DNA of 64,000 bases from an uncultured Kiritimatiellota bacterium (GTDB lineage Bacteria; Verrucomicrobiota; Kiritimatiellia; RFP12; DVOR01): NCBI GenBank assembly GCA_944391055.1, contig CALXSF010000004.1:97374-161373 (forward strand), written 5' to 3'. This document shows, in pieces, positions 1 through 64,000 of this stretch. Every line of letters starts with the position of its first letter. Position 1 is the stretch's first letter. Position numbers and translations under genes: made by a program. The notes under the pieces were generated by a model. That model did no database searches and was not told where the DNA came from. It saw only the letters and a program-made list of their open reading frames with translations.

Positions 1-1440
1 GCCCGGAGCGTCGGCCACCGCGGCCTCCCCATCGGCCGCGTCCTCCGCGTGGTGCGCGACGTCGACGGCCTCCGCTGGCTCGCCTTCGACGCCGCGCGCC
101 CCATCGAACGGCACGACGGGCTGCAAATCGACCTCCCCGGCCGCCCCGTCGGCTTCCCCGTCGACCGTTTGCGCGACGCCCGCACCAAACGCCCCGCTCT
201 CACGCTCCCCGCCGACGCGCGCGCCGAGGTGGCCCTCCCCCGCGAGGTCGGCGACATCCCGCGCGGCGCGGTCGTCTGCCACGCCGCCTCGCAGGCCGTC
301 CGCCGCGCCTTCCCCATCCCCAAGCCCCGCGCCGCCGACCTCCGCGCCCTTCGCCCCGCCGACCTCACCCTCACCCTCGCGCCCGACGCCCTCACCCTCT
401 CTGGGGGAGGCGTGCGCGTCCGCCTCCCCGCCGCGCTCGGCCCCGCGCAGAACCCCGCCGGCACCCGCGCCGCCGCCGAGCGCCACCTGGCCCGCCTCGG
501 CGAGGACGGCTTCGCGCTCCGCGCGCTCGCCGTGGACGACAACGGCCTCTTCGCCCCTCCCTCCCTCCTCAACGCCGCCCGCCGCCAATGGGCCGCCCAG
601 GCCAACGCCGCCGCGCGACCGCCCGCCCCGCCGCCCGCGCCGGAAGCCGACGCGCCGCGCCGCGCGCCGGCGGCGGCCCCGTCCTGGTCGCTCAAGGTCT
701 CCGCCCTCCAATCCCCCGCTCTGCTCGGCGCGGGGGAATTGCCCCGCGAAGTCATCCTCGCGCTCCCCTCCGACGCCGACGAACGCCTGCTCGCCCCCTG
801 GCTCCGCGCCATCCCGCGCGACCGCCTCCGCATCGCCCTCCCCGTGGCCCTGCGCGACGCGGATCTCGGCCCGATGGCCGCCTTGGCCGGCGCGCTCGCC
901 GACCGCGGTCTCCGACGCTTCGAGTGCGCCGACCTGACCTCCTGGCAACTGCTGCGCGACCTCCAGCCCGCCTGCGACGCCTTCGACCTCACCGCCGACT
1001 GGACGTGGTACGCCACGAACGCCGAGGCCGCCCGCCTCCAACGCGCCTGCGGCCTCTCCGCCGCCGTCACGGGCTTCGAGGCGAACCTCCCCAACCTCCT
1101 CACCCTGCCCGACGACCCGCCGCGCGAGGTGCTCGCGGTCGGCTACGCCCCCCTCTTCATCGCCTGCGCCGCGCCGCTCCTCCCCCACCCCGACGGCGCG
1201 CGGCTGACCGACCGCGCCGCCCTGCCCCTGCGCGTGACACGCCTGGGGCGGCTGTGGGTCACCTTCTGCGAACGCCCATGGAGCGCCCTCGGCAGCCAGG
1301 AGACCCTCCTGCGCGCGGGCTTCGGGCGACTGCGCGCGGACGTCTCATGGGCCGGCGCGGCCATCCCCGCCCCCGATTGGCGCGCCCTGCTCCGCCATCC
1401 CTCCCCCCTCCCCTCCCACTTCGCCACGCCGCGGCTCTGA
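1..1440 (+). CDS. hypothetical protein, 5'-partial (reading frame is open to the window edge)
   Basis: GC-rich ORF with coding-like Ala/Arg/Leu/Pro composition and no in-frame stop back to nt 1. The annotated start at 49 is a GTG inside an open frame. No motif I can name with confidence. Confidence 0.35.
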   Translation, partial: ARSVGHRGLPIGRVLRVVRDVDGLRWLAFDAARPIERHDGLQIDLPGRPVGFPVDRLRDARTKRPALTLPADARAEVALPREVGDIPRGAVVCHAASQAVRRAFPIPKPRAADLRALRPADLTLTLAPDALTLSGGGVRVRLPAALGPAQNPAGTRAAAERHLARLGEDGFALRALAVDDNGLFAPPSLLNAARRQWAAQANAAARPPAPPPAPEADAPRRAPAAAPSWSLKVSALQSPALLGAGELPREVILALPSDADERLLAPWLRAIPRDRLRIALPVALRDADLGPMAALAGALADRGLRRFECADLTSWQLLRDLQPACDAFDLTADWTWYATNAEAARLQRACGLSAAVTGFEANLPNLLTLPDDPPREVLAVGYAPLFIACAAPLLPHPDGARLTDRAALPLRVTRLGRLWVTFCERPWSALGSQETLLRAGFGRLRADVSWAGAAIPAPDWRALLRHPSPLPSHFATPRL

Positions 1441-8475: not shown

Positions 8476-10086
8476 TCACCACTCCTTCTCCGGCGCGCGG
8501 ACAAGGTCGGTGTCATGGGCCAGGCGCAGCCGCTCGGGATAATCGAGGGTGTAATGGAGGCCGCGGCTCTCATGGCGGCTCATGGCCGAGGTGATGATGA
8601 GCTCGGCCACGTCGGCGATGTTGCGCAGCTCCAACACATCGGCGGTGACAAGATAGTCGAAATAATACTCGTTGATCTCCTCGCGCAGATTGCGGACCCG
8701 GCGCAGGGCGCGGCGAAGGCGCTTGTCGGTTCGGACGATGCCCACGTAGTCCCACATGCACGTGCGCAGCTCCTGCCAGTTGTGGGCCACGAGGACGGCC
8801 TCGTCGGTGGGGACGGCATGGCCATAGACCCAGTCGGGAACGGTGACGTGCGCGACGCTCGGGACCGGCTCGGCGCAAAGCGCCTTGGCGCACTCGCACC
8901 CGCAGACAAGCGCCTCCAGCAGCGAATTGCTGGCCAGGCGGTTGGCCCCATGAAGCCCCGTGCACGCGCACTCGCCGATGGCGTAAAGGCCGGGGAGCGT
9001 GGTGCGCCCGGCGACGTCCGCGGCGATGCCGCCGCAAAGGTAATGGGCGGCCGGCACGATGGGGATGAGGTCGCGCGCCATGTCGATGCCGAACTCCAGG
9101 CACTTGGCGTAGATGGCGGGGAAACGCGTCTTGAGATACGCCTCGCCCTTGTGGCGGATGTCGAGGCAGCAATAGGCGTCACCGCGCGTCTTCATCTCGT
9201 TGTCGATGGCGCGGGCCACGATGTCGCGCGGGGCGAGGGAGCCGCGCGGGTCGTACCGCTCCATGAACGGCGTGCCGTCGCGCGTCACCAAGACGGCCCC
9301 CTCGCCGCGCACCGCCTCGCTGATGAGGAACCGCTTGGCCTTCGGATGGAAGAGACAGGTGGGGTGGAACTGCACCATCTCCATGTTGCGGATCTTCGCG
9401 CCCGCGCGCCACGCCACGGCGATGCCGTCGCCCGTGGCGATGTCGGGGTTGCAGGTGTATTGGTAGACCTTGCCGATGCCGCCGGTGGCGAGGATGACCG
9501 CGCCCGTGCGCACGGCCCAGATTTCGCCGGTCTCCGTGCTCAGCAGATAGGCGCCGACCACGCGGTTCTCGCCGCCCTCGCGCAGAAAGCGCGTGGTCAC
9601 CAAATCGATCAGCAGCGTGTTCTCGCAGACATGCAAGCCCTTGGTCGCGCGCACGCGCGCCGCGAGCGTCCGCTCCACCTCGCGCCCCGTGATGTCGCCG
9701 GCATGGAGGATCCGCCGCCGCGTGTGCCCCCCCTCGCGCGTCAGGTCATAACCCTCCGGGCAGGCCGAGCCCTCGCCCTTGGTGAACGGCACGCCCATCT
9801 CGATGAGGCGGCGGAGACAGGCGGGGCCGGCCTCGACGATGCGCCGCACCACGTCCTCATGGCACAGCCCGGCCCCCGCGTCAAGCGTGTCGGCCACGTG
9901 TAGGTCAAACGTGTCGTCCGTGCCCATCACGCACGAAATGCCGCCCTGGGCATAGGCGGTGTTCGCCTCGTCCAACGCCCGCTTCGTCACCAACAGCACG
10001 CGCCCATGCCCCGCCAGCCCCATCGCGGCCATCGACCCGGCGATGCCGCTGCCGACGACCAGGTAATCGCAGTCAATCGTTCTCAT
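8476..10086 (-). CDS. nadB: L-aspartate oxidase
   Basis: MRTIDCDYLVVGSGIAGSMAA FAD-binding N-terminus and a succinate dehydrogenase/fumarate reductase flavoprotein-like fold. 536 aa. Confidence 0.9.
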   Translation of the reverse strand: MRTIDCDYLVVGSGIAGSMAAMGLAGHGRVLLVTKRALDEANTAYAQGGISCVMGTDDTFDLHVADTLDAGAGLCHEDVVRRIVEAGPACLRRLIEMGVPFTKGEGSACPEGYDLTREGGHTRRRILHAGDITGREVERTLAARVRATKGLHVCENTLLIDLVTTRFLREGGENRVVGAYLLSTETGEIWAVRTGAVILATGGIGKVYQYTCNPDIATGDGIAVAWRAGAKIRNMEMVQFHPTCLFHPKAKRFLISEAVRGEGAVLVTRDGTPFMERYDPRGSLAPRDIVARAIDNEMKTRGDAYCCLDIRHKGEAYLKTRFPAIYAKCLEFGIDMARDLIPIVPAAHYLCGGIAADVAGRTTLPGLYAIGECACTGLHGANRLASNSLLEALVCGCECAKALCAEPVPSVAHVTVPDWVYGHAVPTDEAVLVAHNWQELRTCMWDYVGIVRTDKRLRRALRRVRNLREEINEYYFDYLVTADVLELRNIADVAELIITSAMSRHESRGLHYTLDYPERLRLAHDTDLVRAPEKEW

Positions 10087-20223: not shown

Positions 20224-21182
20224 GACGCCTCCTCGCCAGCCTTCTCCTCGCCGCGGCCGCCTTGGCGCAGGGTGCCTGGGAGCCGCGCGCCCGTGAACAT
20301 TACGCGCTCATCATCGACAAGGAGCCCTTCGGCCCCATGGCCGCCGAGACCGCGGGGGGCGAGGCCGTCCCCGAGGCCACCCCCGAGCAGGTGCGCGAGG
20401 AATCCAACAAAGTCCAGCTCTGCGCCATGACCGTCACCCCGGACGGCCGCACCGCCGTCGGCATCATCGACAACGGCGCGAACCCGCCCGCCTACATCAC
20501 CCTTTTCGACGGCGAATCCAGCAACGGCCTCGAGCTGATCGTCTCCGACCTCGATCGGGAGTTCGCCACCTTCCGCCGCGACGGCATCACCTTCACCCTC
20601 GGGCTTGGCCTCGGGCTGCTGGAGACCATCACGCCGGAACTGCTGGCCCAACGCGAGGCCGAGGCGCAGGAGCTGGCCGCGGCCGACGAGGAACGCAAGC
20701 GCAAGTCGGCCAACTCCCTGGCCGAGCAGCTCATCGCCATGCAGATGAGCCTCCCGCCGGACGTCGAGGCCCCGCCCCTCCCCATCCCCCACGGCGACGC
20801 CGCCGCCTTCACCAAGGAGTTCGACCCCAACAAGGCGCGGAGCGAACCGCAGACCGAGACCGAGGCGCTCGTGCAGGCCGGCGTGGAAGAGCTCAAGGCC
20901 GCCGTCGCCGCCGGCGAAAGCCCGCAGGATTACCTCCGCCGCTTGGTGGCACATCGGCAGCAGGAGGTCCAACGGCAGCAGGCCGAGAAACAGGCCGCCC
21001 AAAACGCCCTTGACCAGGAACTCGCCGCCGGCGGGCTCTCCGAGAGCGACGCGGCGTACCTCCGCCGCCGCACCAACATCGAATTGATGAAGAAGGGCGT
21101 CGTGCCGCTGACCCCCGTGAATGACCTCTCCGACTCCGAGCGCGCCGAGATCGAGGCCGCGCTCAACGCCTCCCAGCCGTGA
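20220..21182 (+). CDS. hypothetical secreted acidic/coiled-coil protein
   Basis: Signal peptide; 4-nt overlaps with both neighbouring genes. No recognisable domain. Confidence 0.45.
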   Translation: MRRLLASLLLAAAALAQGAWEPRAREHYALIIDKEPFGPMAAETAGGEAVPEATPEQVREESNKVQLCAMTVTPDGRTAVGIIDNGANPPAYITLFDGESSNGLELIVSDLDREFATFRRDGITFTLGLGLGLLETITPELLAQREAEAQELAAADEERKRKSANSLAEQLIAMQMSLPPDVEAPPLPIPHGDAAAFTKEFDPNKARSEPQTETEALVQAGVEELKAAVAAGESPQDYLRRLVAHRQQEVQRQQAEKQAAQNALDQELAAGGLSESDAAYLRRRTNIELMKKGVVPLTPVNDLSDSERAEIEAALNASQP

Positions 21183-21853
21183 CCCCCGCCCCACCCCGCC
21201 CATCCTCCCCGCTCCGCCGCGTCCCCAAGACAGTCTGGCTTCTCTTGGGCGTGGGCGCGCTCATCCTTGTCCCCTTCCTGTTCTTCGGCGAGGCCATCGA
21301 GGCCTGGTTCGCGGGGCTGGCGAGCCCCGAGGCGGGCGTGGCGCGCGGCGTCTTCGGCGCGGTGCTTTTCGGCCTGCTGGCGTTGGACGTCCTCCTCCCC
21401 GTGCCAAGCAGTCTGGCCAGCACGCTCTGCGGCGTGGTCTTCGGCCTCTGGGGCGGGTTCTGGCTCTCCTTCGGCGCGATGACCGTCAGCTGCGTCATCG
21501 GCTACGGCCTGGGGCGCCTCTGCGCCGGTTACGCGCGGCGGCTGATCGGCGAGCGCGAGAACGCGCTCCTGCGCCTTTTCCTGCGCCGCCACGGCGCGCC
21601 CGCGCTGGTCGCCCTGCGGACGGTGCCGGTGCTGGCCGAGGCCTCCGTCCTCTTCGCCGGGTTGGGGCGGATGGGCGCCGGCCGCGCGGCCTGGCCGCTT
21701 CTGCTCGGCAACGCCGCCGTTTCCCTCATCTACGCTTGGGTCGGCGACGCCGGCCGCTCGCCCGACGCCATGCTGCCGGCCTTCCTCGGCTCCCTCGCTG
21801 TCTCCGCCCTGCTGATGGCCGGCGCGTGGCTTTGGCGCCGCCGCCTCGGCTGA
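21179..21853 (+). CDS. DedA/SNARE-associated (TVP38/TMEM64 family) membrane protein
   Basis: Multi-pass membrane protein carrying the DedA-type LLPVPSS...G motif. Confidence 0.7.
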   Translation: MTPAPPRPSSPLRRVPKTVWLLLGVGALILVPFLFFGEAIEAWFAGLASPEAGVARGVFGAVLFGLLALDVLLPVPSSLASTLCGVVFGLWGGFWLSFGAMTVSCVIGYGLGRLCAGYARRLIGERENALLRLFLRRHGAPALVALRTVPVLAEASVLFAGLGRMGAGRAAWPLLLGNAAVSLIYAWVGDAGRSPDAMLPAFLGSLAVSALLMAGAWLWRRRLG

Positions 21854-21862
21854 GCGCGTTCG

Positions 21863-21871
21863 TGTTATAAT
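21863..21871 (+). promoter_or_regulatory. extended -10 box TGtTATAAT 7 nt upstream of ATG 21879, implying a leaderless mRNA
   Basis: Direct read. Confidence 0.45.
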
Positions 21872-21878
21872 GGCCCGT

Positions 21879-23171
21879 ATGCAAGCGGTTCATTTGATCG
21901 GCATCGGCGGCGTGGGGATGAGCGCGTTGGCCCAGGCCTTCCTGGACAAAGGGTGGCGCGTGGGCGGCTCTGACCGTCTGCTTGGCGCGGGGACGGAGAC
22001 GCCGACGTTGGCGACGCTCCGCCGGCAGGGCGTCGCGCTCTTCCCGCAGGACGGCAGCGGCGTGGCGCCGGGCATGACCGTGGTCTACTCCACCGCCATC
22101 GAGGCCGACAACCCGGATCTCTCCAAAGCCAAGGCCCTGGGGCTGCGGACGCTCCACCGAAGCGCGGCCTTGGCGGCCTTGGCGCGCGGGCATACGCTCG
22201 TCGCGGTGACGGGCACCTGCGGCAAATCCTCCGTCACCGCGCTCTTGGGCCATCTGCTGGCGGAATGCGGACGCGACCCGTTCGTGGTGAACGGCGCGGA
22301 GGCCATCGGCTGGGAGGCCGGCGGCGCGCGCGTGGGGTCGGTGCGCCCCTCCGCGGACCCGAACGGCCTGATGGTGGCGGAGGCCGACGAGTCCGACCGC
22401 TCACTCATGGCCCTTGACCCCACCCACGTCATCGTCACGAACGTCTTCAGCGACCACTTCCCCAAGGCCGAGGCCGAGGCGCTCTTCCGGGCCTTCGAGG
22501 CCAAGGCCGCCGGGCACGTCGTCGACGCCAGGGACGAGCCGCCCGGCCCCCCGCCACGCGGAACGGGCTGGGAGACGGTCTTTGACTGGCGCGGGCGGAC
22601 ATGGCGGCTCCCGATGCCGGGCGCCCACAACGTGGCCAACGCCAAGGCCGCGCTGGCGATGGCCCTCGCGCTCGGCTGCGAGGAGGGCGCCCTCGGCGCG
22701 GCGCTCGCCACCTTCCGCGGCGTGCGGCGGCGCTTGGAGCGCGTGGGGACGTTGGGCGGCGCGTGCGTGGTGGACGATTACGCGCACAACGTGGAAAAGC
22801 TCGCCGCCGCCTGGGGCACCCTCGCCGCCGCCTTCCCCGCGGGGGTCTTCGGCCTCTGGCGGCCGCACGGCTACGCGCCGCTCCGGAAACTGCTGGACGG
22901 GCTGGCCGCGATGTTCAACGCCGTCGTGCGCCCCTGCGACCGCCTTTTGGTGCCGCCCGTCTACGACGCGGGCGGGACGACCGACCGCTCCGTGAACAGC
23001 GACGCCCTCCTGGCGCGTCTGCGCTGCCCGGCCGAGGGCGTGGCCGACCTCGCGGCGGCGGAGGCGCGGCTCCGCGCGCTGGCGCGCCCCGGCACGGCGC
23101 TTGTCACCTTTGGCGCGCGCGACCCGGGCCTCCCCGCGCTGGCGCGGCGTTTGGCGGGGCTGGCCCAATAA
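21879..23171 (+). CDS. Mur ligase, UDP-N-acetylmuramate--L-alanine ligase family (MurC/Mpl-like)
   Basis: VHLIGIGGVGMSALAQAFLDKGWRVGGSD N-terminus, then GTCGKSS (P-loop) in the central domain. Confidence 0.8.
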   Translation: MQAVHLIGIGGVGMSALAQAFLDKGWRVGGSDRLLGAGTETPTLATLRRQGVALFPQDGSGVAPGMTVVYSTAIEADNPDLSKAKALGLRTLHRSAALAALARGHTLVAVTGTCGKSSVTALLGHLLAECGRDPFVVNGAEAIGWEAGGARVGSVRPSADPNGLMVAEADESDRSLMALDPTHVIVTNVFSDHFPKAEAEALFRAFEAKAAGHVVDARDEPPGPPPRGTGWETVFDWRGRTWRLPMPGAHNVANAKAALAMALALGCEEGALGAALATFRGVRRRLERVGTLGGACVVDDYAHNVEKLAAAWGTLAAAFPAGVFGLWRPHGYAPLRKLLDGLAAMFNAVVRPCDRLLVPPVYDAGGTTDRSVNSDALLARLRCPAEGVADLAAAEARLRALARPGTALVTFGARDPGLPALARRLAGLAQ

Positions 23172-23180
23172 AGGAAAACG

Positions 23181-24257
23181 ATGGCTCACGATTTTCTTCA
23201 CCGCTTCCTTGACATTTGGCTGGACATGGCCCCCTGGCTGCTCGTGGGGTTCGCCGTGGCCTTTCTGTGCTCGTATTGCCTGAGCGAACGCTGGATGCGG
23301 CGCCATCTCGGCGGCTCGGGCTGGCTGCCCATCCTCAAGGCGTCGCTGGTCGGCCTGCCGATGCCGATCTGCTCCTGCGGCGTGTTGGTGGTGGGGCTGG
23401 CGCTGCGCAAAAGCGGCGCGCGCAAGGCGCCTGTCTGCGCCTTCCTGGCCTCGGCCCCGCAGGCGGGCTCTGACGCGCTTTTCCCGAGCTGGGCGATTCT
23501 CGGCCCCGCGCTGACGGTGGCGCGGTTCGTGGGCGCGATGGCCGCCGGCGTCGCCTCCGGCGCGCTGGTGCGCTGGTTCGGCGTGGCCCAGCCCCCGCCC
23601 GACGAGACGCCCGACCTGAAGGCCGACTGCTCCGGCCTCTGCGCGTGCCACCATCACGACCCGGATCATCCGCACCACGACGGCGAGGCCCATCATCATG
23701 AGTTCGCCGACCGCCGCACGCGCTTGCGCGACGCCGCGCGCTACGCGTTCGTGCACCTGCCCGGCGAGCTGGCGGGCTTCCTCGTCGTGGGCGTGGCCGT
23801 GGCGGCGGCCTTGGGCATGGCCATCCCGGAGGATGCGCTCGGCGGGCTCCCCCTGCCGATGGCCTATGTGCTGGCCGTGCTCATCGGCATCCCCACCTAT
23901 GCCTGCTCGCTGGCCATCATCCCGGTGGCGGCGGGCCTCATCGCGGGCGGGCTTTCGCCGGGGGCGGCCTTCGTCTTCATGGCCTGCGCCTCCACCACCC
24001 ATGTGGCCGCGCTGCTGGTGCTGGGGCGGGCGTTCGGCTGGCGGGCGACGGCGGCCTTCGTGCTTGGCGTGGCGCTCACCGCCGTGCTCTTCGGCCTGCT
24101 CATCGACTTCCCCCTCGCCGACCTCATCCGCGTCCCGGGCCTCACCGGCCCCGGCCATGCGCACACGCATGCGCACGCGCTCTGGGCGCTCGCCCCCCTT
24201 GCCCTCCTGCTCGTCAACGGCGCCATCCGCGCGCGCCACCATCGCCACGAAGGCTGA
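23181..24257 (+). CDS. permease, DUF318/ArsP-like family, with a histidine-rich loop
   Basis: Polytopic membrane protein with the PMPICSCGV motif and a loop CACHHHDPDHPHHDGEAHHHEF. Confidence 0.65.
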   Translation: MAHDFLHRFLDIWLDMAPWLLVGFAVAFLCSYCLSERWMRRHLGGSGWLPILKASLVGLPMPICSCGVLVVGLALRKSGARKAPVCAFLASAPQAGSDALFPSWAILGPALTVARFVGAMAAGVASGALVRWFGVAQPPPDETPDLKADCSGLCACHHHDPDHPHHDGEAHHHEFADRRTRLRDAARYAFVHLPGELAGFLVVGVAVAAALGMAIPEDALGGLPLPMAYVLAVLIGIPTYACSLAIIPVAAGLIAGGLSPGAAFVFMACASTTHVAALLVLGRAFGWRATAAFVLGVALTAVLFGLLIDFPLADLIRVPGLTGPGHAHTHAHALWALAPLALLLVNGAIRARHHRHEG

Positions 24258-24261
24258 CCCC

Positions 24262-25407
24262 ATGGAAAAACCCCATCTTTGCGTGGCCGCGGCCATGATC
24301 TTGGATGACGCCGGAGCCGTGCTCTGCGTCAGGCGCGGCGCCTCGCGTTATGCCTCCACCGCCGACAAATGGGAGTTCCCCGGCGGCAAGATCGAGCCCG
24401 GCGAGACCCCCGCCCAAGCCGCCGTGCGCGAGGTGCGCGAGGAATTGGGCCTGGACGTCGCGCCGCTTGCCGAGGCCGCCGTCGTGCGCCACGCGTATCC
24501 CGAGTTCACCATCGCCCTCCATGGCGTCCTCTGCGCCCCCGTGGGCGGCGGGCGGCCGACGCCGGCCCTCCGCGAGCATACCGCCTTTGATTGGTGCCCC
24601 CCGGACGGCCTGTGGCGCCACGACTTCGCGGAGGCGGACACCGCCTTGCTCGTCTCGCTCCGCGAACGTTTCTTCGGCAGTCGGCTGCGCACCAAGACCT
24701 TTGGCCGGAACTGCCGTTTCGTGCAGGAGAGCGCCAGCACCAACACCGACGCCCTCGCGCTCGCCGCGCAGGGCGCCCCGGAAGGCACCCTCGTCGTCGC
24801 CGAGCGCCAAACCGCCGGGCGGGGGCGCCTTGGCCGCGTCTGGGAGGCCGCGCCGGGGCAATGCCTCACCTTTTCCCTCCTGGCCCGCCCCAAAGCCCCG
24901 CCCGAGGTCGCCGCCACGCTTCCGCTCGTGGCGGGGGTCGCCGTGGCCGCGGCGCTCCGGGCCCGCGGGTTCGCGGCGGGCGTCAAGTGGCCGAACGACG
25001 TCCTCCTCGACGATCGCAAAGTCTGCGGCATCCTCTGCGAGGCCCAGACCTCCGCGCGGGGCATCGAAGGCATCGTCGTCGGCATCGGCGTGAACACCGG
25101 TGCCGTCCCCGCGGCGTTGGCCCATCGCGCCATCGGCCTCGGCGGCGTGGATCGGCTTGCGCTCCTGGCGGATCTCTGCGCGGCCTTCGAGACGTTCTAC
25201 GCCCGGTGGTCCGAGGGCGGCCTGCCCGCGCTCCGCGCCGAGCTCGACGCCCTCGACTGCAAACGCGGCCGCGCCATCCGCGTGCGCCCCGCCGGCGGCA
25301 CGATTGACGGCATCGCCCGCGGCATCCGCGACGACGGCGCGCTGCTTTTGGAACAGAACGGCCGCACCGAGGCCATCCTTTGCGGGGAGATCGCACAATG
25401 GGACTGA
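24262..25407 (+). CDS. birA: fusion protein: NUDIX hydrolase (MutT-like) N-terminal domain plus a biotin--[acetyl-CoA-carboxylase] ligase (BirA) catalytic domain
   Basis: NUDIX box GGKIEPGETPAQAAVREVREELG, then BirA motifs QTAGRGRLGRVWEA and KWPNDVLLDDRKVCGIL. No N-terminal HTH. Confidence 0.8.
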   Translation: MEKPHLCVAAAMILDDAGAVLCVRRGASRYASTADKWEFPGGKIEPGETPAQAAVREVREELGLDVAPLAEAAVVRHAYPEFTIALHGVLCAPVGGGRPTPALREHTAFDWCPPDGLWRHDFAEADTALLVSLRERFFGSRLRTKTFGRNCRFVQESASTNTDALALAAQGAPEGTLVVAERQTAGRGRLGRVWEAAPGQCLTFSLLARPKAPPEVAATLPLVAGVAVAAALRARGFAAGVKWPNDVLLDDRKVCGILCEAQTSARGIEGIVVGIGVNTGAVPAALAHRAIGLGGVDRLALLADLCAAFETFYARWSEGGLPALRAELDALDCKRGRAIRVRPAGGTIDGIARGIRDDGALLLEQNGRTEAILCGEIAQWD

Positions 25408-26120
25408 ATCCGCTGCTTCTTGCGGCCCTCGCCGCCGCCCCCCTGGCCGCCAAGGACATCTACGTCTGCGGCCCCACCAACGCCATCCCGCCCCTCACGC
25501 AGGACGTCCGCGCCCTCCACCTCCGCGACGTCGGCGCCGCCCGCGTCTATGCCCTCCACTTCCCGGCCGGGCTTCGCGAGCTCAACCTTTCGTCAAACGC
25601 CCTCCTTGCCCTCCCGGACGGCCTCGTCCCCCAGGGCGTCGCCCGCCTTTGGCTCGCCGACAACCGCCTCACCGCCCTCCCCAAAACCGCCTCCGGCTGG
25701 ACGAACCTAGAGTATCTCAACCTCGACCGGAACCTCCTCGCCGCCCTCCCCGACCTCTCGCGCACCCGCCTCCGCTGGCTCCGCCTCAACGGCAACCGCC
25801 TCACCGCCCTCCCCACCCTCCCCGACACCGTCGAGCGCCTCTACCTCGCCGACAACCGCCTCGCCGCCGTCCCACGGAAACCCGCGGCCCTCCGGCACCT
25901 CACGCTTGCCGGGAACCCCATCACCGCCGTCCCCGACGACCTCGGCGCCGGGCTCGAATGGCTTGACCTCTCCCGCACCCGCCTCACCGCCCTCCCCCGC
26001 GACCTCTCCGCTTGGCGGACCCTCAAGCTCCTCAACCTCGCCGGCTGCCCCCTCCCGGACGCCGAGAAAGACCGCATCGAAGCCGCCTTCGACCCCGACA
26101 AAACCACCATCCTGTTCTAA
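25398..26120 (+). CDS. secreted leucine-rich-repeat protein
   Basis: Signal peptide followed by about 8 tandem LxxLxLxxNxLxxLP repeats. Confidence 0.7.
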   Translation: MGLNPLLLAALAAAPLAAKDIYVCGPTNAIPPLTQDVRALHLRDVGAARVYALHFPAGLRELNLSSNALLALPDGLVPQGVARLWLADNRLTALPKTASGWTNLEYLNLDRNLLAALPDLSRTRLRWLRLNGNRLTALPTLPDTVERLYLADNRLAAVPRKPAALRHLTLAGNPITAVPDDLGAGLEWLDLSRTRLTALPRDLSAWRTLKLLNLAGCPLPDAEKDRIEAAFDPDKTTILF

Positions 26121-26131
26121 GCCTCCCCGCC

Positions 26132-28662
26132 ATGCAAGGCTCCGCCAACCCGCTCATCCAGCTTCTCTATCACTCGGGGCGCCAGTACATCGTTCCGGTC
26201 TATCAGCGCCCCTACAGCTGGTCTGTCAAGCAATGCGCCCAGTTGTTTGACGACCTCGAGGGAATGCTCCGAAACGACCGCTCGTCCCATTTCTTTGGGA
26301 GCGTGGTGTTGAAATACAATCAATGCGGCGACTTCACCGAATGTGTCGTCATCGATGGCCAGCAGCGCCTCACCACGGTCTCCTTGCTTCTCCTGACCCT
26401 CCGCGACCTTCTGCGGCAGGGTGTTTTGTCGTCTCCGCCCGACAAACCACAATTGGCAGATGAGATCACGGAATACACGCTCATCAACAAGTTCCAACCC
26501 CTTGAGAAGACCCCGCGTTTGCGACTTGGCGCCGACGATCAACCCGCGTGGCTGAATCTTCTGGGAATCGGCGGGACGGCCTTGCCAACCTCCCACCTTC
26601 TGGAGAACCGCGACTTTTTCGCCGAGCGGCTGTGCCGTTCCGACTTCTCCCCCGCCCAACTTTACGCGGCCATCGGGAAATTGGAGGTCCTGAGCGTCTC
26701 CCTTGAGAACAAGGACGACCCGCAACTCATCTTCGAGAGCCTCAATGCCACCGGCCTCGCGCTCACCGAAGGCGACAAGGTGCGCAATTACCTGCTCATG
26801 AATCTCTCCCCCGGCGACCAAGAGCGTCTCCACGCCAAATATTGGCGAGCCATCGAACGCCACGCCCAAGAGGCCGTCAGCGAGTTGATCCGTGACTTCC
26901 TGAGCGTCAAATGCCAGCAAACGCCCCGTTTGGATGCCGTCTACGCGACCTTCAAGCAGTATGCCGCCCAATGCGGGCTCTGCCGCGAGGCGCTTCTCAG
27001 GGAACTGGGACGCTACGCAAAATGGTTCGCCCAATTGCGCGATTGCAAGGCGGATGGGTGGGGCCTCGCCTTGCAGGCCCTGCTCAATCGCCTCAACCGG
27101 TTGGATGTCGCCACCCTCCGCCCCTTCGCGTTGGAGGTCCTGCGCCAACATGAGGAGGGGACGCTGTCCCAAGATGACCTCATCGCCATCTTCGCCACCA
27201 TCGAAAGCTACCTCTTCCGCCGCGCCATCTGCGAGGTGCCCACCAACGCACTCAGCAAAATCTTCCTCACCCTCAACGCCGACATCGCCCGTCTGCGTCA
27301 CGGCAACGTGCGTTACGGCGACGTCCTCGCCTACGTCTTGCTCGCCAAAAGCGGCAGCGGCCGCTTCCCCGACGACGCGAGTTCCGCGCGGATCTCGCCA
27401 CCCGCCAGGTCTACAAGATGCGGCCGGCCTACGCCCACCACCTCTTTGAGCGGCTTGAGAACGCCGACTCCAAGGAGACCAAGGACGTCTGCGCTCATCT
27501 CGACAACAAGGACTACTCCATCGAGCACATCATGCCCCAGCACCTCACCCAGGCCTGGCGCGAGGCGCTCGGCCCCAACAGCGAGGAAATCCACGCCACT
27601 TGGCTCCACCGCCTCGCGAACCTTACTCTGACCGCCTACAACCCCAATCTTGGCGACGCGCCCTTCACGAAGAAACGCGACGCCATCCCCGGCGGCTTCA
27701 GCGACAGCGGGCTGCGCCTCAACCAAGCCATCGCCAAGCTTGAACGTTGGGGCGAACCCGAGCTCAAAGCGCGCGAAGAGGCGCTCTGCGCACAGGCGCT
27801 TCGTCTCTGGCCTTTTCCCAAAACCGACTTCCGTCCCCCGGAACGGCAGTGGGCCGCCTGCACCTTGGCCGACACGGGGATCCCTCTCTCCAACCGCAAA
27901 CCTGCGCGCTACGCCTATCACAGCGACCCCATCCCAGTGAAGGACTGGTCCGCCCTCCTCACAGGCGTGCTGCGAGCCCTATTGGATGCCCACCACGAGA
28001 AATTGCACGCCCTTGCCCACCACCAAAACGCTGGGGGCTTCGCATGGTTGGCGCGCGATCCCGACGGCTTTCGCATGCCAGAGAAATTGGACGAGGGACT
28101 CTTCGTCGAAAAGCATGGCAGCACAGAACAGCGCCTCCGCAACCTCCGCGCACTCTTCGCCTACCTTGGCGAAGAACCCGGCGACCTCGTCATCTACCTG
28201 CAAAACGGCGACGCCGCCAAACACAAACCGAACACGCTCAGCGCCGTTTGCCGCGACTACTGGGCGTTTGCCCTCCCCACCCTGCAAGAACAATGCCCTT
28301 GGCTCAAAAACCGCACACCGCCCCTCAACGACCATTTCATAACGCGACTTCCTGGCGCCCGCGGTTACGAACCCCATTATGTCGTGACCAATTCCGCCGC
28401 CCGCGTCGCCCTCTGTATCTGGCTGAAAACCACGGAAGAGAACAAGGCCGCCTTCGACCGCCTCTTTGCCCAGCGACAGGCGATTGAGGCGGACTTCGGC
28501 GCACAGCTTCATTGGGTGCGCAACGACACGGGACGCAGCAGTTGGGTGGAATACGCCCTCCCCAATGTCAGTGTCCGCAACCATGCCGATTGGCCGCGCA
28601 TCCTCGACTTCCACAAAACCCACGGCCTGCGCCTTTGGGACGCCGTGCGCCACCATCGCTGA
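26132..28662 (+). pseudogene. GmrSD-family type IV restriction endonuclease (DUF262 ParB-like NTPase domain plus DUF1524 His-Me finger nuclease domain) interrupted by a -1 frameshift near 27378
   Basis: Frame A carries YIVPVYQRPYSW...IDGQQRLTT (DUF262) and runs through ...GRFPDD. Homology then continues in the +1-shifted frame as EFRADLATRQVYKMRPAYAHHLFERL...EHIMPQ...HRLANLTL (DUF1524). The two frames overlap by a single base at 27379. Confidence 0.8.
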
Positions 28663-29347: not shown

Positions 29348-29702
29348 GGGGGTGACCAGGTTTCGACAGGGTATGTCCGGGCCTCGGTTGCGTGCCGGGG
29401 ATGATCGTTGGCCCCGTAAAACATCGATCAAAACCTAACTGCGAACGATAACTTCGCTTACGCGGCCTAACTTTAACGGCCCGTCGCCGAAACGCCGATG
29501 TCTGCTGAGCGTGGAAGCGTCGACTAGCAGGCCCTGTCGCGAACCGAACCCTCGGGGACGCGCGCTTGTACCAACATGAGGGTGTGCGTCCGTCCAAGCC
29601 CGTCGGTCGGCCTGTCGGACGCGAGACAATAGGCCGGATACGCACGTAGACATCGTGGTGAGGCTATCTTGGACGGGGGTTCGACTCCCCCCACCTCCAC
29701 CA
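29348..29702 (+). ncRNA. ssrA: tmRNA (SsrA)
   Basis: 5' GGGGGUGACCAGGUUUCGACAGGG. Tag ORF gcg aac gat aac ttc gct tac gcg gcc taa, giving ANDNFAYAA, at 29451-29480. 3' GGACGGGGGUUCGACUCCCCCCACCUCCACCA, which is a T-arm, an acceptor stem complementary to the 5' end, and CCA. Confidence 0.9.
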
Positions 29703-37809: not shown

Positions 37810-39141
37810 CTAGGGGGCCCACTCCAGCGCCCGCGCGGCGGCGAGCGTGGGGGCGCGGCGGATGCGCACCGGCGCATCCGGCGAGACGGGGCGCACGTGA
37901 TCCACCCATTCCTCCGAGAAGCGCCGCCCCAGCAGATGGACGTCGGTGGGCGAGGGATAGGGCACGTAACCGTGGATGTCGGTGCAATGGTAATCCACGT
38001 CGCCCACCAACACCACCTCATGGCGGCGCTCGCCGCCGACGTAGACGTTGCCGATGGCCAGCGTGTGGCGTCCCGAAGGATTGTGAAGGATGACCCGCTG
38101 GGGCCCCGCGGCCTCGCCCATGAAGCTGAAACTGCCGCACCAGACCACGCCGCCTGGGTTGTCGGGCAGGGCGATCTCCGTCACCCGCTCCGTCAGCATC
38201 ACCGTGGCATAGACGGTCTTGGCCTTGAAGGCGGCGTGCTCCTTGACGTAGAAGCCCGTGCGCGAGAAGGTCCACCCCCGCAGGCGCGCCCAGTCGCAGA
38301 CCGGCTCCCACCCCAGCGCCACCCCCACCACGGCCCACGGCAGCAGCCAGCGGCCCAACGCCTCCAACCAGGGCCTCCTGGCCCCGCGGCAGATGGCCGC
38401 GCCGAGGGCCCGGGGCGTGGGCAGGCGCAGCGCGGGGTCGGCCACCAAGGCCCGCGCCATCACCCGCCGCCACAGGGGGTGGGCCTGCCAATCGGGCAGC
38501 AGGTCGCGCACGAGCATGGCGATGGCGTAGACATCCGCCGCCGCGGAGAGGGGCGCGCCCTCGAACTGCTCCGGGGCGGAGCGCCCCAGCGTCCCCAGCC
38601 CCGCCGGCGCGCCCGCGAGGGTCGGGTTGGGCAGCGTGCCCATCGCGTCGGCAGCCTCCGCGGTCAGGGCCTTGGCCACGCCGAAATCGACCAGCACGGC
38701 ATGGCCGCCGCGGAGCATGACGTTCGAGCGCTTGATGTCGCGGTGCAGGACGCCATGCCGGTGGAGCTCCTCGGCCGCGTCGCAGAGCTGCAAGGCCCAC
38801 CGGCGCACCGTCGGCTCCGGCGCGGCCTCGGGCAAAGGCTCCAACACCTCCATCGCGAACCACGGCGTCGCGCCGCGCTCGCCGTGGGCGAAGACCCGCA
38901 CGATGCCGGGGTGGCTCAGCCCCGCCAGCAGACGCGCCTCGCGCAGGAAGCGCACCCGCGCGCCGGGCTCCCCCGCGCGCAGCGCCTTCACCGCCGCCAG
39001 GCGCCCATCCTCCCCGCGCGCGCACCAGACCTCCGCCGAGGCCCCCACCCCGAGCAGACCGGTGACGGCAAAGCCGCCCACACGGTCGCCCACCTTGAAG
39101 AGACGCCCCTCCGGGACCAGATCCGCCCAATCCTCCCGCAT
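37810..39141 (-). CDS. Ser/Thr protein kinase with an uncharacterised ~170-aa C-terminal domain
   Basis: VAIK-like AAVKAL, then HRDIKRSNVML, DFGVAKA and APE. The C-terminal half has no recognisable motif. Confidence 0.85.
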   Translation of the reverse strand: MREDWADLVPEGRLFKVGDRVGGFAVTGLLGVGASAEVWCARGEDGRLAAVKALRAGEPGARVRFLREARLLAGLSHPGIVRVFAHGERGATPWFAMEVLEPLPEAAPEPTVRRWALQLCDAAEELHRHGVLHRDIKRSNVMLRGGHAVLVDFGVAKALTAEAADAMGTLPNPTLAGAPAGLGTLGRSAPEQFEGAPLSAAADVYAIAMLVRDLLPDWQAHPLWRRVMARALVADPALRLPTPRALGAAICRGARRPWLEALGRWLLPWAVVGVALGWEPVCDWARLRGWTFSRTGFYVKEHAAFKAKTVYATVMLTERVTEIALPDNPGGVVWCGSFSFMGEAAGPQRVILHNPSGRHTLAIGNVYVGGERRHEVVLVGDVDYHCTDIHGYVPYPSPTDVHLLGRRFSEEWVDHVRPVSPDAPVRIRRAPTLAAARALEWAP

Positions 39142-60792: not shown

Positions 60793-61404
60793 TTACAAAT
60801 TAGATAATTGATAACGCTCTTCAACTAAAATTGTTTTGAAGAATGTCCGTTTTGAAAAATGGTAACAAATCCGCCAAAGGCCCTCTTGAAAAAATGTTAC
60901 ATCTTGGGAAAATCGCACCTCCATCCCTGGCTCCAACAAGAAAATTGGTGCAACGCAAGAAACATTCCCTACTCTAACAAAAGGTTCCTTTAGAACCTCT
61001 GTTCGCAAAAAATGAATGTTGTAAAAGCCATGAAACCCAACCACTCCATCCGTCGCATAGATTCCTGCTTCGTTAAAACATCCCTCAGCATTCTCATCAA
61101 GTAAAGCCCAGCGTTTCTCTGTTACATTGTATTTCTCCACCGTAATCTCAACCGGAAGGGACGCGACATCAACAGAAACCCTGTTCTCATTTGAAAGAAT
61201 GACCCACACTGTAATTGGTTGACCGCACGAAACAATGCAAGACTTTTGACTAAAGCGACCTTGTAACAACAAATCATCAGCGGGAAAATCAATTTGCACG
61301 ATTCCCTCATCTATGTCTAAACTCGACAAACAAGAGAATTGTGACAACGCCATTATAAAAAGCCCACTTACCAATACATTTCTGAATAGACGTTCTCTTC
61401 CCAT
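60793..61404 (-). CDS. Rhs-cassette small protein with a signal-peptide/lipoprotein-like N-terminus (candidate immunity protein for the HExxH toxin tip)
   Basis: Low-GC; overlaps the Rhs stop. N-terminus LVSGLFIMALSQFSCLSS. Confidence 0.45.
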   Translation of the reverse strand: MGRERLFRNVLVSGLFIMALSQFSCLSSLDIDEGIVQIDFPADDLLLQGRFSQKSCIVSCGQPITVWVILSNENRVSVDVASLPVEITVEKYNVTEKRWALLDENAEGCFNEAGIYATDGVVGFHGFYNIHFLRTEVLKEPFVRVGNVSCVAPIFLLEPGMEVRFSQDVTFFQEGLWRICYHFSKRTFFKTILVEERYQLSNL

Positions 61405-61980
61405 TCCTGTTCACTCCCCATATTTTGTCCATGATTCGTTTCTTCGTCAAAAGTCAAATTCCGCTCATTTTGTCGGTCCCAAGCTGTTTTTCTCAACTCA
61501 TCTCGTTCTGTTTGCAACGATTTCAAGGCCTTGGCTTTTGCGCCGTCATATGTCGTTGCGCAAACACTTACCATAGGAAGCGAAGAACGCTTGTACGCAT
61601 TTAAATAGATGTTAATATGAGTTCTCTCATGTGCAAGTATCTGCCAAGACTGTTTGGCTTCTTCTGTCGCCCAACTTTTGTCTTCCAAAAAGTAAAAAAT
61701 CCATTTGGCCCGAGTAGCAATAGCCTGAACACAAATACAATCTGTATCACTGGAAACGATTGAGAAATCAATATCCGCCTCATTTATACTCATGTATGGT
61801 TGTGCCAAAACAGTTTCTGCCACACGGCCGTTTCGCGTTTCATACGATGGGATTGTTCCTTGAAAATCAGCCCACGTTATCTCTGATGCATACTCAAACT
61901 TTTTAAGTCCACGTCGATCATATTGCGAAAGGGGAGAATTATCAACGAACGAATAAAGATTGTCAGAATAATCTTCAACG
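61368..61980 (-). other. Rhs C-terminal toxin domain 1 (HExxH zinc-metallopeptidase-like)
   Basis: AHERTH motif; low GC. Confidence 0.6.
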
Positions 61981-64000
61981 TCTCTTCCAAGCCAGCGGCC
62001 GTCGAGGGGGTTGTAGTGGCGGTAGTTGTAGTAGACGAGAGCGAGGGCGTCGTCGTGGAACTCGGAGGAGAAGCGGAAGGGATTGTCGGCGGCGCGGGAG
62101 CCGGCGGCGGCGACGGCACCGAAGGGGGCGTAGTCGTAGTTGGCGACGGGCTCATTGAAGGGGCCGACGGTGACGACGTCGGTCACGTTCTTGTTGCCGT
62201 CGTGGAGGAGGAAGGTGGCGCGTTTGGCGTTTTGGCGGAAACAGAGGGGACGGGTCGCGACGGGCTCGGTGGGATCCCAGATGAATTCCTTGTAGACGTT
62301 CCACGGGCTGTTGGAGAAGAGCTGCTGGACGCAGAGGTAGCCGTTGTAAAGGAACTTGGTGTAGGTAATCTGGCGGTTGCCGGCCATCTCCTTGTGGAAG
62401 ACGCGCCGACCGAGGCGGTCGTAACCCATCGTGACGACCGTGTTCCCCTGCGTCCAGCGGATGGGGCGGTTCTCGGCGTTGTATTCCACCGCCCACACGC
62501 CCGTGTCGGTGAGCACCTTGGTCTGATTGCCGTCGGCGTCGTATTCCGGCTCGAAGGCGTCGATGGCGGTGTATTGGTTGAGGGCGTTGGCGGCGTACGC
62601 CCGCCCCTCGGCCACGGTGCGGTTGCCGATGTCGTCGTAAGCATAGGAACGGGCGTCGGCGGAGGTCAACTGGTCGCGGAAGTCGTAGCCATACTGCTCG
62701 TCATTCTTGGAGACACGGCGGCCGAGGAGGTCGTTGGCGTAGACATACGTGCTGAGAGTCGTCCCGTCGGGGAGGCTGTTGGTGACGGCGGTCAGCAGGT
62801 CGCGCCCCGGCTCATACGCCCATTCCACCGTGAGGCCGTTGGGATAGGTCAGCCTGGCCTTGAGGTCGGAGCCGGGCAGGTAGGCCCAGGCGAAGGCGCC
62901 GCCCTCGTTCATCGTGGCGAGGCGCCCGGTGGCGGGGTCGTAACCCAAGGTCATCCGACGGCTGCCGTTCACGGAATAGCCCGCGTCGCGCCCGTAGGCG
63001 TCGAAGTGATGCGTGAGCGTCTTGGCGTACTCGCCCGTGATGGACTCCGTCTCCAGCTCGCCGTAGGCATTATAGCCAAAGGTGGTGGTGCCCACCGCGT
63101 CCGTCGCCTGCGCCTGACGGCCAAAGACGTCATAAACATAGCCCACCGCCGGCGTGCCGTCCGAGTACGTCTGCGACACAAGGTCGCCGTAGACATTGTA
63201 GGCGTAGGTTGTCACGTTGCCGCGCGCGTCCGTGCGCGTCGCCACCTGGCCAAGGTCGGTGAGCGTGTAGGCCACGCCATGGCCGTCGGCATACGTCTTC
63301 GAGAGCAAGGCCCCCGTGGCCTCATCGTAAGCCCACGTCGTCGAGTCGCCCTCGCCGGAAGCCTCGTCGCGGAAGGTCGTCATGCCCACCTTCTGCCCGA
63401 ACAGGTCATAATCATACACCACGGGATAGACGGCGCCACCCTCGTAGGTCTTGTTGCCGCGCACGTCGTATTCATAGACCGTCACGTTGCCAAGGGCGTT
63501 GGTGACGGCGCAGACGCGCCCCGCCTCGTCATAACCATAGGCCGTCGTCGCCCCCACGGCGTCCGTCACCGAGGCCAGGCGCCCGCGCGCGTCATACGCC
63601 CGCGCCGTCACGTTCCCGCGGCCGTCCGTCTCCGCCACCACGCGCAGATACTTGTCATAGGCCGTCGAGTTGGTCACGCACGAAGCGCTCACCGTCTGCA
63701 CCGTCACCCCATCGAGCGCCACCTCCACCGATGGGTTGCCCACCCCAGGGAAGGTCGTCGTCACCGTCCGCCACGCGCCCTCCTCCTCAATCACCGTCTC
63801 CGTCTCATTTCCGCGCACGTCCGTGGACACCTGGCTCAGGCCCTCCGCGTCCACGCGCACCGACTGCGTCAGGTTCGAGACCGCGACGACCGTCTCCAGC
63901 CACGGCTCGCCGTCGACGAGGACATAGGCCGTCGCCGTCTCCCGCGGCAGACGCGCGCCTACCTGCTCGGAGACGCGGTCGCCCCACGCGTCGTAGACGT
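61368..64000 (-). CDS. Rhs repeat protein (3' end of the gene; N-terminus lies beyond the window) with an HExxH metallopeptidase-like C-terminal toxin domain
   Basis: Frame is open to the window edge with YD repeats (YDAWGDRVSEQ...). The core ends ...RWLGRD, then a low-GC tip containing QILAHERTHINIY. Confidence 0.85.
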   Translation of the reverse strand, partial: VYDAWGDRVSEQVGARLPRETATAYVLVDGEPWLETVVAVSNLTQSVRVDAEGLSQVSTDVRGNETETVIEEEGAWRTVTTTFPGVGNPSVEVALDGVTVQTVSASCVTNSTAYDKYLRVVAETDGRGNVTARAYDARGRLASVTDAVGATTAYGYDEAGRVCAVTNALGNVTVYEYDVRGNKTYEGGAVYPVVYDYDLFGQKVGMTTFRDEASGEGDSTTWAYDEATGALLSKTYADGHGVAYTLTDLGQVATRTDARGNVTTYAYNVYGDLVSQTYSDGTPAVGYVYDVFGRQAQATDAVGTTTFGYNAYGELETESITGEYAKTLTHHFDAYGRDAGYSVNGSRRMTLGYDPATGRLATMNEGGAFAWAYLPGSDLKARLTYPNGLTVEWAYEPGRDLLTAVTNSLPDGTTLSTYVYANDLLGRRVSKNDEQYGYDFRDQLTSADARSYAYDDIGNRTVAEGRAYAANALNQYTAIDAFEPEYDADGNQTKVLTDTGVWAVEYNAENRPIRWTQGNTVVTMGYDRLGRRVFHKEMAGNRQITYTKFLYNGYLCVQQLFSNSPWNVYKEFIWDPTEPVATRPLCFRQNAKRATFLLHDGNKNVTDVVTVGPFNEPVANYDYAPFGAVAAAGSRAADNPFRFSSEFHDDALALVYYNYRHYNPLDGRWLGRDVEDYSDNLYSFVDNSPLSQYDRRGLKKFEYASEITWADFQGTIPSYETRNGRVAETVLAQPYMSINEADIDFSIVSSDTDCICVQAIATRAKWIFYFLEDKSWATEEAKQSWQILAHERTHINIYLNAYKRSSLPMVSVCATTYDGAKAKALKSLQTERDELRKTAWDRQNERNLTFDEETNHGQNMGSEQEWEENVYSEMYW
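61980..63761 (-). repeat. 1.78-kb direct repeat B (Rhs core), near-identical to 58299-60080
   Basis: See repeat A; constant offset of 3681 nt. Confidence 0.85.

Follow-up and report, generated by a model that had tools for sequence, protein, structure and literature searches.

A class-I-type biotin protein ligase with an N-terminal NUDIX domain in a narrow clade of PVC bacteria

Biotin protein ligases (BPLs) are usually divided into classes by their N-terminal extension, which is absent, a winged helix–turn–helix (HTH) domain or a large eukaryotic extension. Here we describe a gene in which the ligase is preceded instead by a NUDIX hydrolase domain. The gene lies in a 64,000-nucleotide stretch of DNA (hereafter the window) from an uncultured Kiritimatiellota bacterium (contig CALXSF010000004.1, positions 97,374–161,373 of the forward strand; assembly GCA_944391055.1), and related genes with the same architecture occur in other members of the Planctomycetes–Verrucomicrobia–Chlamydiae (PVC) group.

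Among described enzymes, class I BPLs (Mycobacterium tuberculosis Rv3279c, 9drk and 3rux; Pyrococcus horikoshii PH0147, 1wnl; Aquifex aeolicus, 3efs) have in common with the fusion protein the catalytic and cap fold, the GRGRxGR loop, the KWPND motif and the absence of a DNA-binding domain. Unlike these enzymes, the fusion protein bears an extra 135-residue N-terminal NUDIX domain, attached through a short helical junction. Class II BirA (Escherichia coli, 1bia) likewise places an N-terminal accessory domain before the same core, and its BPL region is homologous to that of the fusion protein (E = 3.4e-23); the accessory domain of class II BirA is, however, a winged HTH, whereas that of the fusion protein is a NUDIX hydrolase, with HTH_11 absent from the Pfam matches. 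A precedent for a BPL joined to an unrelated enzyme is the BirA–CoaX protein Baf (PRK13325), in which both the partner and the domain order differ and whose model the fusion protein matches with a score of 76 against a cutoff of 761. An N-terminal MutT domain on another enzyme-like domain is known from PRK08999 (MutT–ThiE-like), again with a different partner; the N-terminal part of this model is the best NCBIfam match of the NUDIX half, at 84.1 bits and thus below the cutoff of 245. With the MutT/NudG family the NUDIX half shares the full NUDIX box and the flanking motifs EFPGGK, YP[ED]F, EH, W and AxAD, and it departs from these free-standing enzymes in being joined to a ligase.

Architecture and conservation of the fusion protein

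The fusion gene is a single open reading frame (ORF) without an internal stop, and its translation is 381 amino acids (aa) long (Table 1). Pfam places a NUDIX domain (PF00293) at residues 5–125 (E = 4.6e-21, 75.7 bits; cutoff 21.1), to which NUDIX_4 (PF14815) adds a match of 56.8 bits (cutoff 35), followed by BPL_LplA_LipB (PF03099) at residues 159–278 (E = 1.3e-22, 80.6 bits; cutoff 21) and BPL_C (PF02237) at residues 336–377 (E = 7.9e-7, 29.3 bits; cutoff 21). The NCBIfam model TIGR00121 (birA_ligase) covers residues 153–378 with 183.3 bits (cutoff 83.1). These searches bear out the initial annotation, which had read the frame from its letters alone as a NUDIX domain joined to the catalytic domain of BirA, and the motifs that it quoted (NUDIX box, GRGRLGR and KWPND) were found where expected. 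The GC content by codon position is alike in the two halves (0.75/0.53/0.87 in the NUDIX part and 0.77/0.55/0.90 in the BPL part) and typical of coding frames in this 72%-GC window.

Table 1. The fusion gene, its domains and other features of the window (positions count from the first letter of the window).
Feature	Position	Strand	Details
NUDIX–BPL fusion gene	24262..25407	+	complete; stop TGA 25405-25407; translation, Pfam and NCBIfam matches, homologue clusters
NUDIX domain	24274..24666	+	residues 5-135; MutT/NudG-like (d)NTP pyrophosphohydrolase type; Pfam, structures, AlphaFold2
NUDIX box GKIEPGETPAQAAVREVREELGL	24385..24453	+	residues 42-64; full Gx5Ex7REUxEExGU by regular expression
Junction	24667..24717	+	residues 136-152; AlphaFold2 secondary structure
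BPL catalytic domain	24718..25251	+	residues 153-330; Pfam, TIGR00121, Foldseek
Biotin-binding loop GRGRLGR	24817-24837	+	motif match
Catalytic-lysine motif KWPND	24985-24999	+	motif match
BPL_C cap domain	25267..25392	+	residues 336-377; Pfam
ArsP-family permease gene	23181..24257	+	Pfam ArsP_1, E 6.9e-31; stop 4 nt before the fusion ATG
Leucine-rich-repeat protein gene	25398..26120	+	~240 aa, hydrophobic N-terminus; Pfam LRR_4/LRR_8
GmrSD-type (DUF262/DUF1524-like) restriction endonuclease, two overlapping ORFs	26138-27631 (GmrSD_N); 27418-28662 (GmrSD_C + DUF4268)	+	
tmRNA	29348-29702	+	complete; Rfam RF00023, 164.7 bits; sole Rfam match; just downstream of the low-GC island
ORF with DUF3656 (U32 collagenase C-terminal)	49-1440	+	in relatives directly downstream of the fusion–LRR pair
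Eukaryotic-type Ser/Thr protein kinase	37810-39141	-	
RHS-repeat proteins, 876 and 830 aa	57582-60212, 61368-63860	-	

The AlphaFold2 (AF2) model of the fusion protein reached a predicted local distance difference test score (pLDDT) of 93.1, with low values only in the biotin-binding loop (residues 189–191), as expected of an apo ligase; the NUDIX half, at pLDDT >90, adopts the alpha/beta/alpha NUDIX topology. When this model was searched with Foldseek against the PDB, only BPL-only structures were matched, among them the class I enzymes of M. tuberculosis, P. horikoshii and A. aeolicus (E ~1e-19 to 1e-20, TM-scores (TMt) of 0.76–0.85; 0.80 for M. tuberculosis 9drk and 0.85 for P. horikoshii). 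In the family alignment, the ligase residues G186, G188, R189, G191, R192, W194 and K242–D246 show no variation and R187 reaches a conservation of at least 90%, and the metal-binding residues of the NUDIX box (first G, E48, R56, E57, E60 and E61) are kept in 30 of the 32 aligned fusion proteins.

A search of 5.8 billion proteins yielded ~60 clusters with the identical full-length architecture, at 45–99% identity and from many independent assemblies. The 99%-identical cluster alone holds 19 member sequences, on contigs of up to 441.8 kb and from three sources (NCBI, ENA and Logan). Depositors annotated these proteins merely as 'biotin--[acetyl-CoA-carboxylase] ligase'.

The continuous ORF, the ~60 homologue clusters and the independent assemblies exclude a stop or frameshift that would split two genes, a possibility raised in the initial annotation. 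With the same frame recurring in dozens of assemblies, an even codon composition and a compact, confident AF2 model, we give a negligible probability to the explanation that adjacent mutT-like and birA genes were merged through a sequencing or assembly error or an overlooked stop. Some NUDIX-only fragments are known (P0123 and P0124), and in one relative (L089) the gene caller divided the fusion gene at an in-frame TAG into products of 102 and 267 aa, as such a merger might predict; in L089, however, the TAG interrupts the NUDIX domain itself, away from the junction, and the remaining frame is unchanged.

Among the loci checked, no true split pair was found that would represent a pre-fusion state of separate, neighbouring mutT and birA genes. 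L089 (685–1821; GCA_017646485.1, a Kiritimatiellae metagenome-assembled genome (MAG)) was rejected as such a pair, its fusion gene being interrupted by a single TAG at codon ~103, which may reflect an error of sequencing, decay into a pseudogene or a natural truncation. P0124 (L088 341–1006) was rejected as well: this is a fusion that breaks off past residue ~170, midway through the BPL domain, and runs into unrelated sequence beside DUF6712 and hypothetical genes, a break that may reflect insertion of a mobile element or a chimeric scaffold. P0123 (L090), encoded on a contig of 3.8 kb, has 169 aa and only the NUDIX part.

Distribution and single origin

An exhaustive HMMER pass covered 1.84 billion 50%-identity cluster representatives, and its best 150 matches were examined. 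Only three of these are full-length fusion representatives (P0003, P0121 and P0062); below them stand BPL-only proteins and NUDIX-only fragments, and no independent NUDIX–BPL fusion from another lineage was present among the 150. The architecture is therefore limited to one narrow clade. Organism labels on the carriers are Kiritimatiellia bacterium, Lentisphaeraceae bacterium and Candidatus Spyradenecus sp., the last belonging to the Lentisphaerota of the PVC group according to the NCBI taxonomy, and the carriers form a small PVC group, apparently from gut or faecal samples. The phyletic distribution that the initial annotation had proposed to trace thus resolves, from these best 150 matches and the ~60 clusters, to a single PVC clade.

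A scan of GTDB genomes with the family alignment added at least three full-length fusions (L001–L003) among the matches listed; ordinary MutT genes likewise fit [KR]WEFPGGK, one of the two patterns used, and the species-level census that the scan gives is incomplete. Two scan matches that extended past residue 140 were considered as independent fusions and rejected, L063 being a plain 135-aa MutT-like gene and L069 a fusion of NUDIX with lipoyl synthase (LipA), to which we return below. At the MutT loci of Opitutaceae and other PVC bacteria (L022), no birA gene adjoins. No account of a NUDIX–BPL or NUDIX–lipoyl synthase fusion appeared in full-text literature searches that paired Nudix with either partner enzyme (BirA or biotin protein ligase, and lipoyl synthase).

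The history of the ligase half was reconstructed by neighbour joining from the BPL domain alone (51 sequences, 237 columns, 200 bootstrap replicates). The fusion proteins were monophyletic in 196 of 200 replicates, and their sister group, recovered in 182, consists of P0122 and P0064, ligases of 253–255 aa without an N-terminal domain. The gene for P0122 (253 aa) stands in the order RdgC–TrkA–ApbE–GNAT acetyltransferase–GSIII–BPL, and P0059 and P0121, which branch most basally among the fusions, are flanked by the same RdgC–TrkA–ApbE–GNAT–GSIII order. The simplest reading of these sequences is that a NUDIX gene was joined once to the N-terminus of a class-I-type ligase. Because the closest non-fused relatives are class-I-type ligases that lack an N-terminal domain, the NUDIX domain was added and no HTH was replaced. 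The initial annotation had placed the NUDIX box where class II BirA carries its HTH; this is correct as to position and does not hold as to history. Together, these results identify the NUDIX–BPL protein as a real, conserved, single-origin and lineage-restricted fusion, and as a new architecture of a known enzyme family.

Function of the two halves

The reading that we favour, with moderate confidence, is that of a bifunctional housekeeping protein with two chemically independent activities on one chain and a structurally entrenched interface between them. In brief, a NUDIX domain was fused once onto a class I ligase in the ancestor of the small PVC clade with Kiritimatiellia, Lentisphaeraceae and Candidatus Spyradenecus labels; its packing against the ligase core would afterwards have become entrenched.

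The ligase half, made up of the C-terminal 240 residues, is a BPL of the class I type, which would form biotinyl-5′-AMP from biotin and ATP and then biotinylate the carrier lysine of biotin-dependent carboxylases. A repressor role is not expected because there is no DNA-binding domain. NCBIfam equivalogs of the bifunctional repressor/ligase score far under their cutoffs (for example NF008848, 149.6 against 362; NF008847, 121.8 against 293) and align merely to residues ~155–378. The suggestion in the initial annotation that this is not a BirA-type transcriptional repressor is supported on both counts.

The N-terminal 135 residues form a MutT/NudG-type NUDIX domain, predicted to be catalytically competent and most likely to cleave (d)NTPs that are non-canonical or in surplus into (d)NMP and pyrophosphate, the reaction for which its free-standing homologues are annotated. 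The solved structures closest to this half are 3gwy, a 'putative CTP pyrophosphohydrolase' (E = 2e-21), NudG (2rrk) and MutT (1mut), and it is 40–52% identical to hundreds of free-standing proteins of 130–140 aa that are named (d)NTP pyrophosphohydrolase or 8-oxo-dGTP diphosphatase. At 30 of the 42 positions with at least 85% conservation in the fusion NUDIX domains, the free-standing homologues have the same residue; the common positions include the whole box together with H77, Y79, C91, E105, H106, W111, A125 and D126. Most of the 'fusion-specific' positions either show conservative exchanges or belong to the junction helix, and residue conservation gives no sign of a remodelled NUDIX pocket. 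MutT-like in resemblance, the domain probably works like MutT, and nucleotide sanitation, as put forward in the initial annotation, is the likely activity of a domain of this MutT/NudG type.

The domain is not assignable as an orthologue of either MutT or NudG. It misses both MutT equivalogs (TIGR00586, 71.8 against 97.9 bits; NF008044, 66.4 against 148 bits) and the NudG equivalog (NF007834, 67.1 against 156 bits). Furthermore, D126 stands, as in NudG-like enzymes, at the position of E. coli MutT Asn119, which we take to be the residue that reads 8-oxoG. Specificity for 8-oxo-dGTP is not established because of this substitution and the sub-cutoff scores.

Both halves are under comparable purifying selection. 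Relative to L001, dN/dS (the ratio of nonsynonymous to synonymous substitution) is 0.27 for the NUDIX domain and 0.20 for the BPL domain; a value of 0.77 for BPL_C was discarded as invalid, a 1-residue indel in L001 having shifted the ungapped codon comparison. Mean pairwise identity in the family is 0.56 for the NUDIX domain, 0.67 for the BPL domain and 0.48 for the junction, the least conserved segment. In the AF2 model, the C-terminal NUDIX helix (residues 124–141) leads almost directly into the first BPL strand (residues 151–157), and the predicted template modelling score (pTM) of 0.91 for the window protein implies a fixed arrangement of the two domains in the model.

One sublineage has lost the NUDIX box. 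In P0058 and P0060, REVxEE is replaced by PFIKER and the Pfam NUDIX match is gone; identity to the window protein is 25–29% in the NUDIX region and 65–69% in the BPL domain. Both proteins still carry an N-terminal domain of ~135 residues, and both are nested in the fusion clade beside P0020 and P0050 (191 of 200 replicates in the BPL-domain tree). AF2 models P0058 with NUDIX-like topology at a pTM of 0.90, from an alignment of mostly intact homologues that biases the model. Judged by sequence, the hydrolase half has been knocked out naturally in this sublineage. As the box was lost and the BPL domain conserved, the ligase evidently has no need of NUDIX catalysis. In L087 (7001–8242), a locus of this sublineage, the fusion gene is divergent from an adjoining mutS.

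The initial annotation had suggested that nucleotide hydrolysis is coupled to biotinylation. On such an account the NUDIX domain would hydrolyse a product or side-product of the ligase, be it biotinyl-5′-AMP, the adenylates of biotin analogues or Ap4A derived from adenylate and ATP, and so limit off-target biotinylation or the build-up of inhibitors. The decay of the box in P0058 and P0060 next to a conserved ligase and the occurrence in the sister lineage of the same ligase, at a syntenic locus, without a NUDIX domain leave this suggestion unsupported, as do the comparable purifying selection on the two halves, the variable neighbours of the gene and the absence of biotin or acetyl-CoA carboxylase genes from the 64-kb window. 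Clearance of biotinyl-AMP, the adenylate by-product that had been named as an example, is likewise unsupported: the conserved residues of the NUDIX half are those of free-standing (d)NTP pyrophosphohydrolases, and the pocket is devoid of fusion-specific changes. In addition, biotinyl-5′-AMP belongs to the acyl-phosphate mixed anhydrides rather than to the nucleoside diphosphates linked to another moiety, and would be an unusual, non-canonical NUDIX substrate. Coupling would accord with the covalent link, with the fixed domain arrangement that AF2 confidently predicts and with strict conservation of the box in 30 of 32 family members. A precedent exists in metabolite damage control, where a Nudix domain is fused to a vitamin-pathway enzyme in the thiamin fusion Tnr3, listed in Table 4 of PMC4921024 as a case of damage pre-emption; the searchable literature yielded no description of coupling for the NUDIX–BPL pair. 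We consider catalytic coupling improbable.

A structural or regulatory role, in which the NUDIX domain would order or stabilise the active-site loops of the ligase or sense a nucleotide to gate biotinylation, with hydrolysis secondary, is possible but rather doubtful. The N-terminal domain of class II BirA reportedly stabilises and orders active-site loops. Retention of a domain with NUDIX-like predicted topology despite the dead box of P0058 and P0060 would fit such a role, as would the short helical junction and the predicted rigidity of the arrangement; the model of P0058 is, however, the biased one described above. Strict conservation of the catalytic residues in 30 of 32 proteins would be needless for a pure scaffold, the NUDIX dN/dS lies near that of the ligase, and the sister ligases P0122 and P0064 manage without the domain. 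Reuse of a NUDIX fold as an effector-binding domain is on record for the NrtR regulators (PMC2330246).

A parallel to the NUDIX–BPL protein was found in a Lentisphaeria MAG (JBMNFR010000001.1), in which L069 (7974–9341, + strand) encodes a 455-aa protein with an intact-box, MutT-like NUDIX domain N-terminal to lipoyl synthase (Pfam NUDIX, LIAS_N and Radical_SAM in L069/P0428). Its homologues (P0428–P0492) make up at least 65 clusters at 53–100% identity, labelled 'lipoyl synthase' and from Lentisphaeria/Victivallales. As in the NUDIX–BPL protein, the partner is a housekeeping enzyme that supplies swinging-arm carrier domains with their cofactor, and the bacteria that bear the fusion belong to the same phylum-level group; the partner is, unlike BPL, a radical-SAM enzyme. 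A shared origin of the two NUDIX domains was considered and is unsupported: they are ~33% identical, and the LipA-fusion NUDIX domains form a clade of their own (100 of 100 bootstraps) that groups with the BPL-fusion NUDIX domains in just 39 of 100, in a comparison whose free-standing NUDIX set was picked by similarity to the window protein and is biased as a test of common origin. With a sister relationship between the two NUDIX domains unsupported, the LipA fusion therefore represents an independent event.

The two parallel fusions could be a coincidence, for example of low-abundance housekeeping genes that were once adjacent, or could hint at a shared role. We regard it as unlikely that NUDIX domains were recruited twice for the installation of swinging-arm cofactors, where they would destroy an adenine-nucleotide side-product or inhibitor (acyl-adenylates or Ap4A) or gate attachment by nucleotide status. 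Mainly because of the NUDIX–LipA fusion, we leave a small share of our confidence to the coupled or regulatory readings.

Several observations weigh against two independent activities with an entrenched interface. The MutT and NudG scores below cutoff leave the NUDIX substrate not established. The fixed interface that the pTM of 0.91 predicts would also fit a functional interaction between the halves. The dead NUDIX domain of P0058 and P0060 has been retained rather than deleted, which points to some non-catalytic value for the ligase; in the light of the models, this retention would fit entrenchment, a packed interface being costly to lose, and equally a structural or regulatory contribution. 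Finally, a second, independent and conserved NUDIX fusion would be an odd coincidence if such fusions were functionally neutral.

Genomic context and implications

In the window, the fusion gene is part of a tight co-directional array that runs from a DedA/VTT gene through a Mur-type ligase gene and the ArsP permease gene to the fusion gene and a leucine-rich-repeat (LRR) protein gene. The ATG of the LRR gene overlaps the fusion stop by 10 nt in the window, L081 (LRR gene at 9128–9874) and L003 (9125–9859), which suggests translational coupling of the two genes; in L089 (1824–2546) the LRR gene starts just past the fusion stop. The fusion–LRR pair recurs in L081–L084 (72% identity), L003 (61%) and L089 and is usually followed by a U32 peptidase/DUF3656 gene. 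The upstream neighbour of the fusion differs in L081 and L003. The LRR and U32-peptidase genes are the sole companions of the fusion in the core clade, and they are missing from basal members; beside the basal fusions L085, L086 and L093, the LRR gene was absent. A scan of positions 21000–26500 for promoters and terminators gave nothing beyond shuffle expectation.

Downstream of the LRR gene, GC content falls from ~0.73 to ~0.60 over the GmrSD stretch, in which the endonuclease gene appears split in two. A frameshift may have disrupted this defence gene, and the stretch may form a small island that breaks the LRR–U32 peptidase synteny of the relatives. As tmRNA genes are common integration sites, the low-GC island may owe its position to the adjoining tmRNA gene. 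The DUF3656 ORF lies at the start of the window and therefore indicates a rearrangement relative to L081 and L003. The RHS-repeat genes at the window end are possibly polymorphic-toxin loci, a eukaryotic-type protein kinase gene lies between these and the island (Table 1), and the remainder consists of ordinary chromosomal genes, such as those for CarB, GyrA, ArgG, RecJ, an FtsZ-like protein, Nnr and PrmA.

An N-terminal NUDIX domain adds a further arrangement to the usual N-terminal classes of BPL. If its two halves are independent, as favoured here, the protein would represent a single-origin domain accretion in which one half has been knocked out naturally and the structure has apparently become entrenched; for annotation, these proteins would then have to be credited with a MutT-like function as well, and the family would offer a case study in fusion evolution. 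If the halves are coupled, the fusion would introduce a new quality-control step in biotinylation, relevant to the chemistry of off-target biotinylation, and a NUDIX domain specific to cofactor attachment would place such BPLs in a new class, marked by 'proof-reading/damage-control'.

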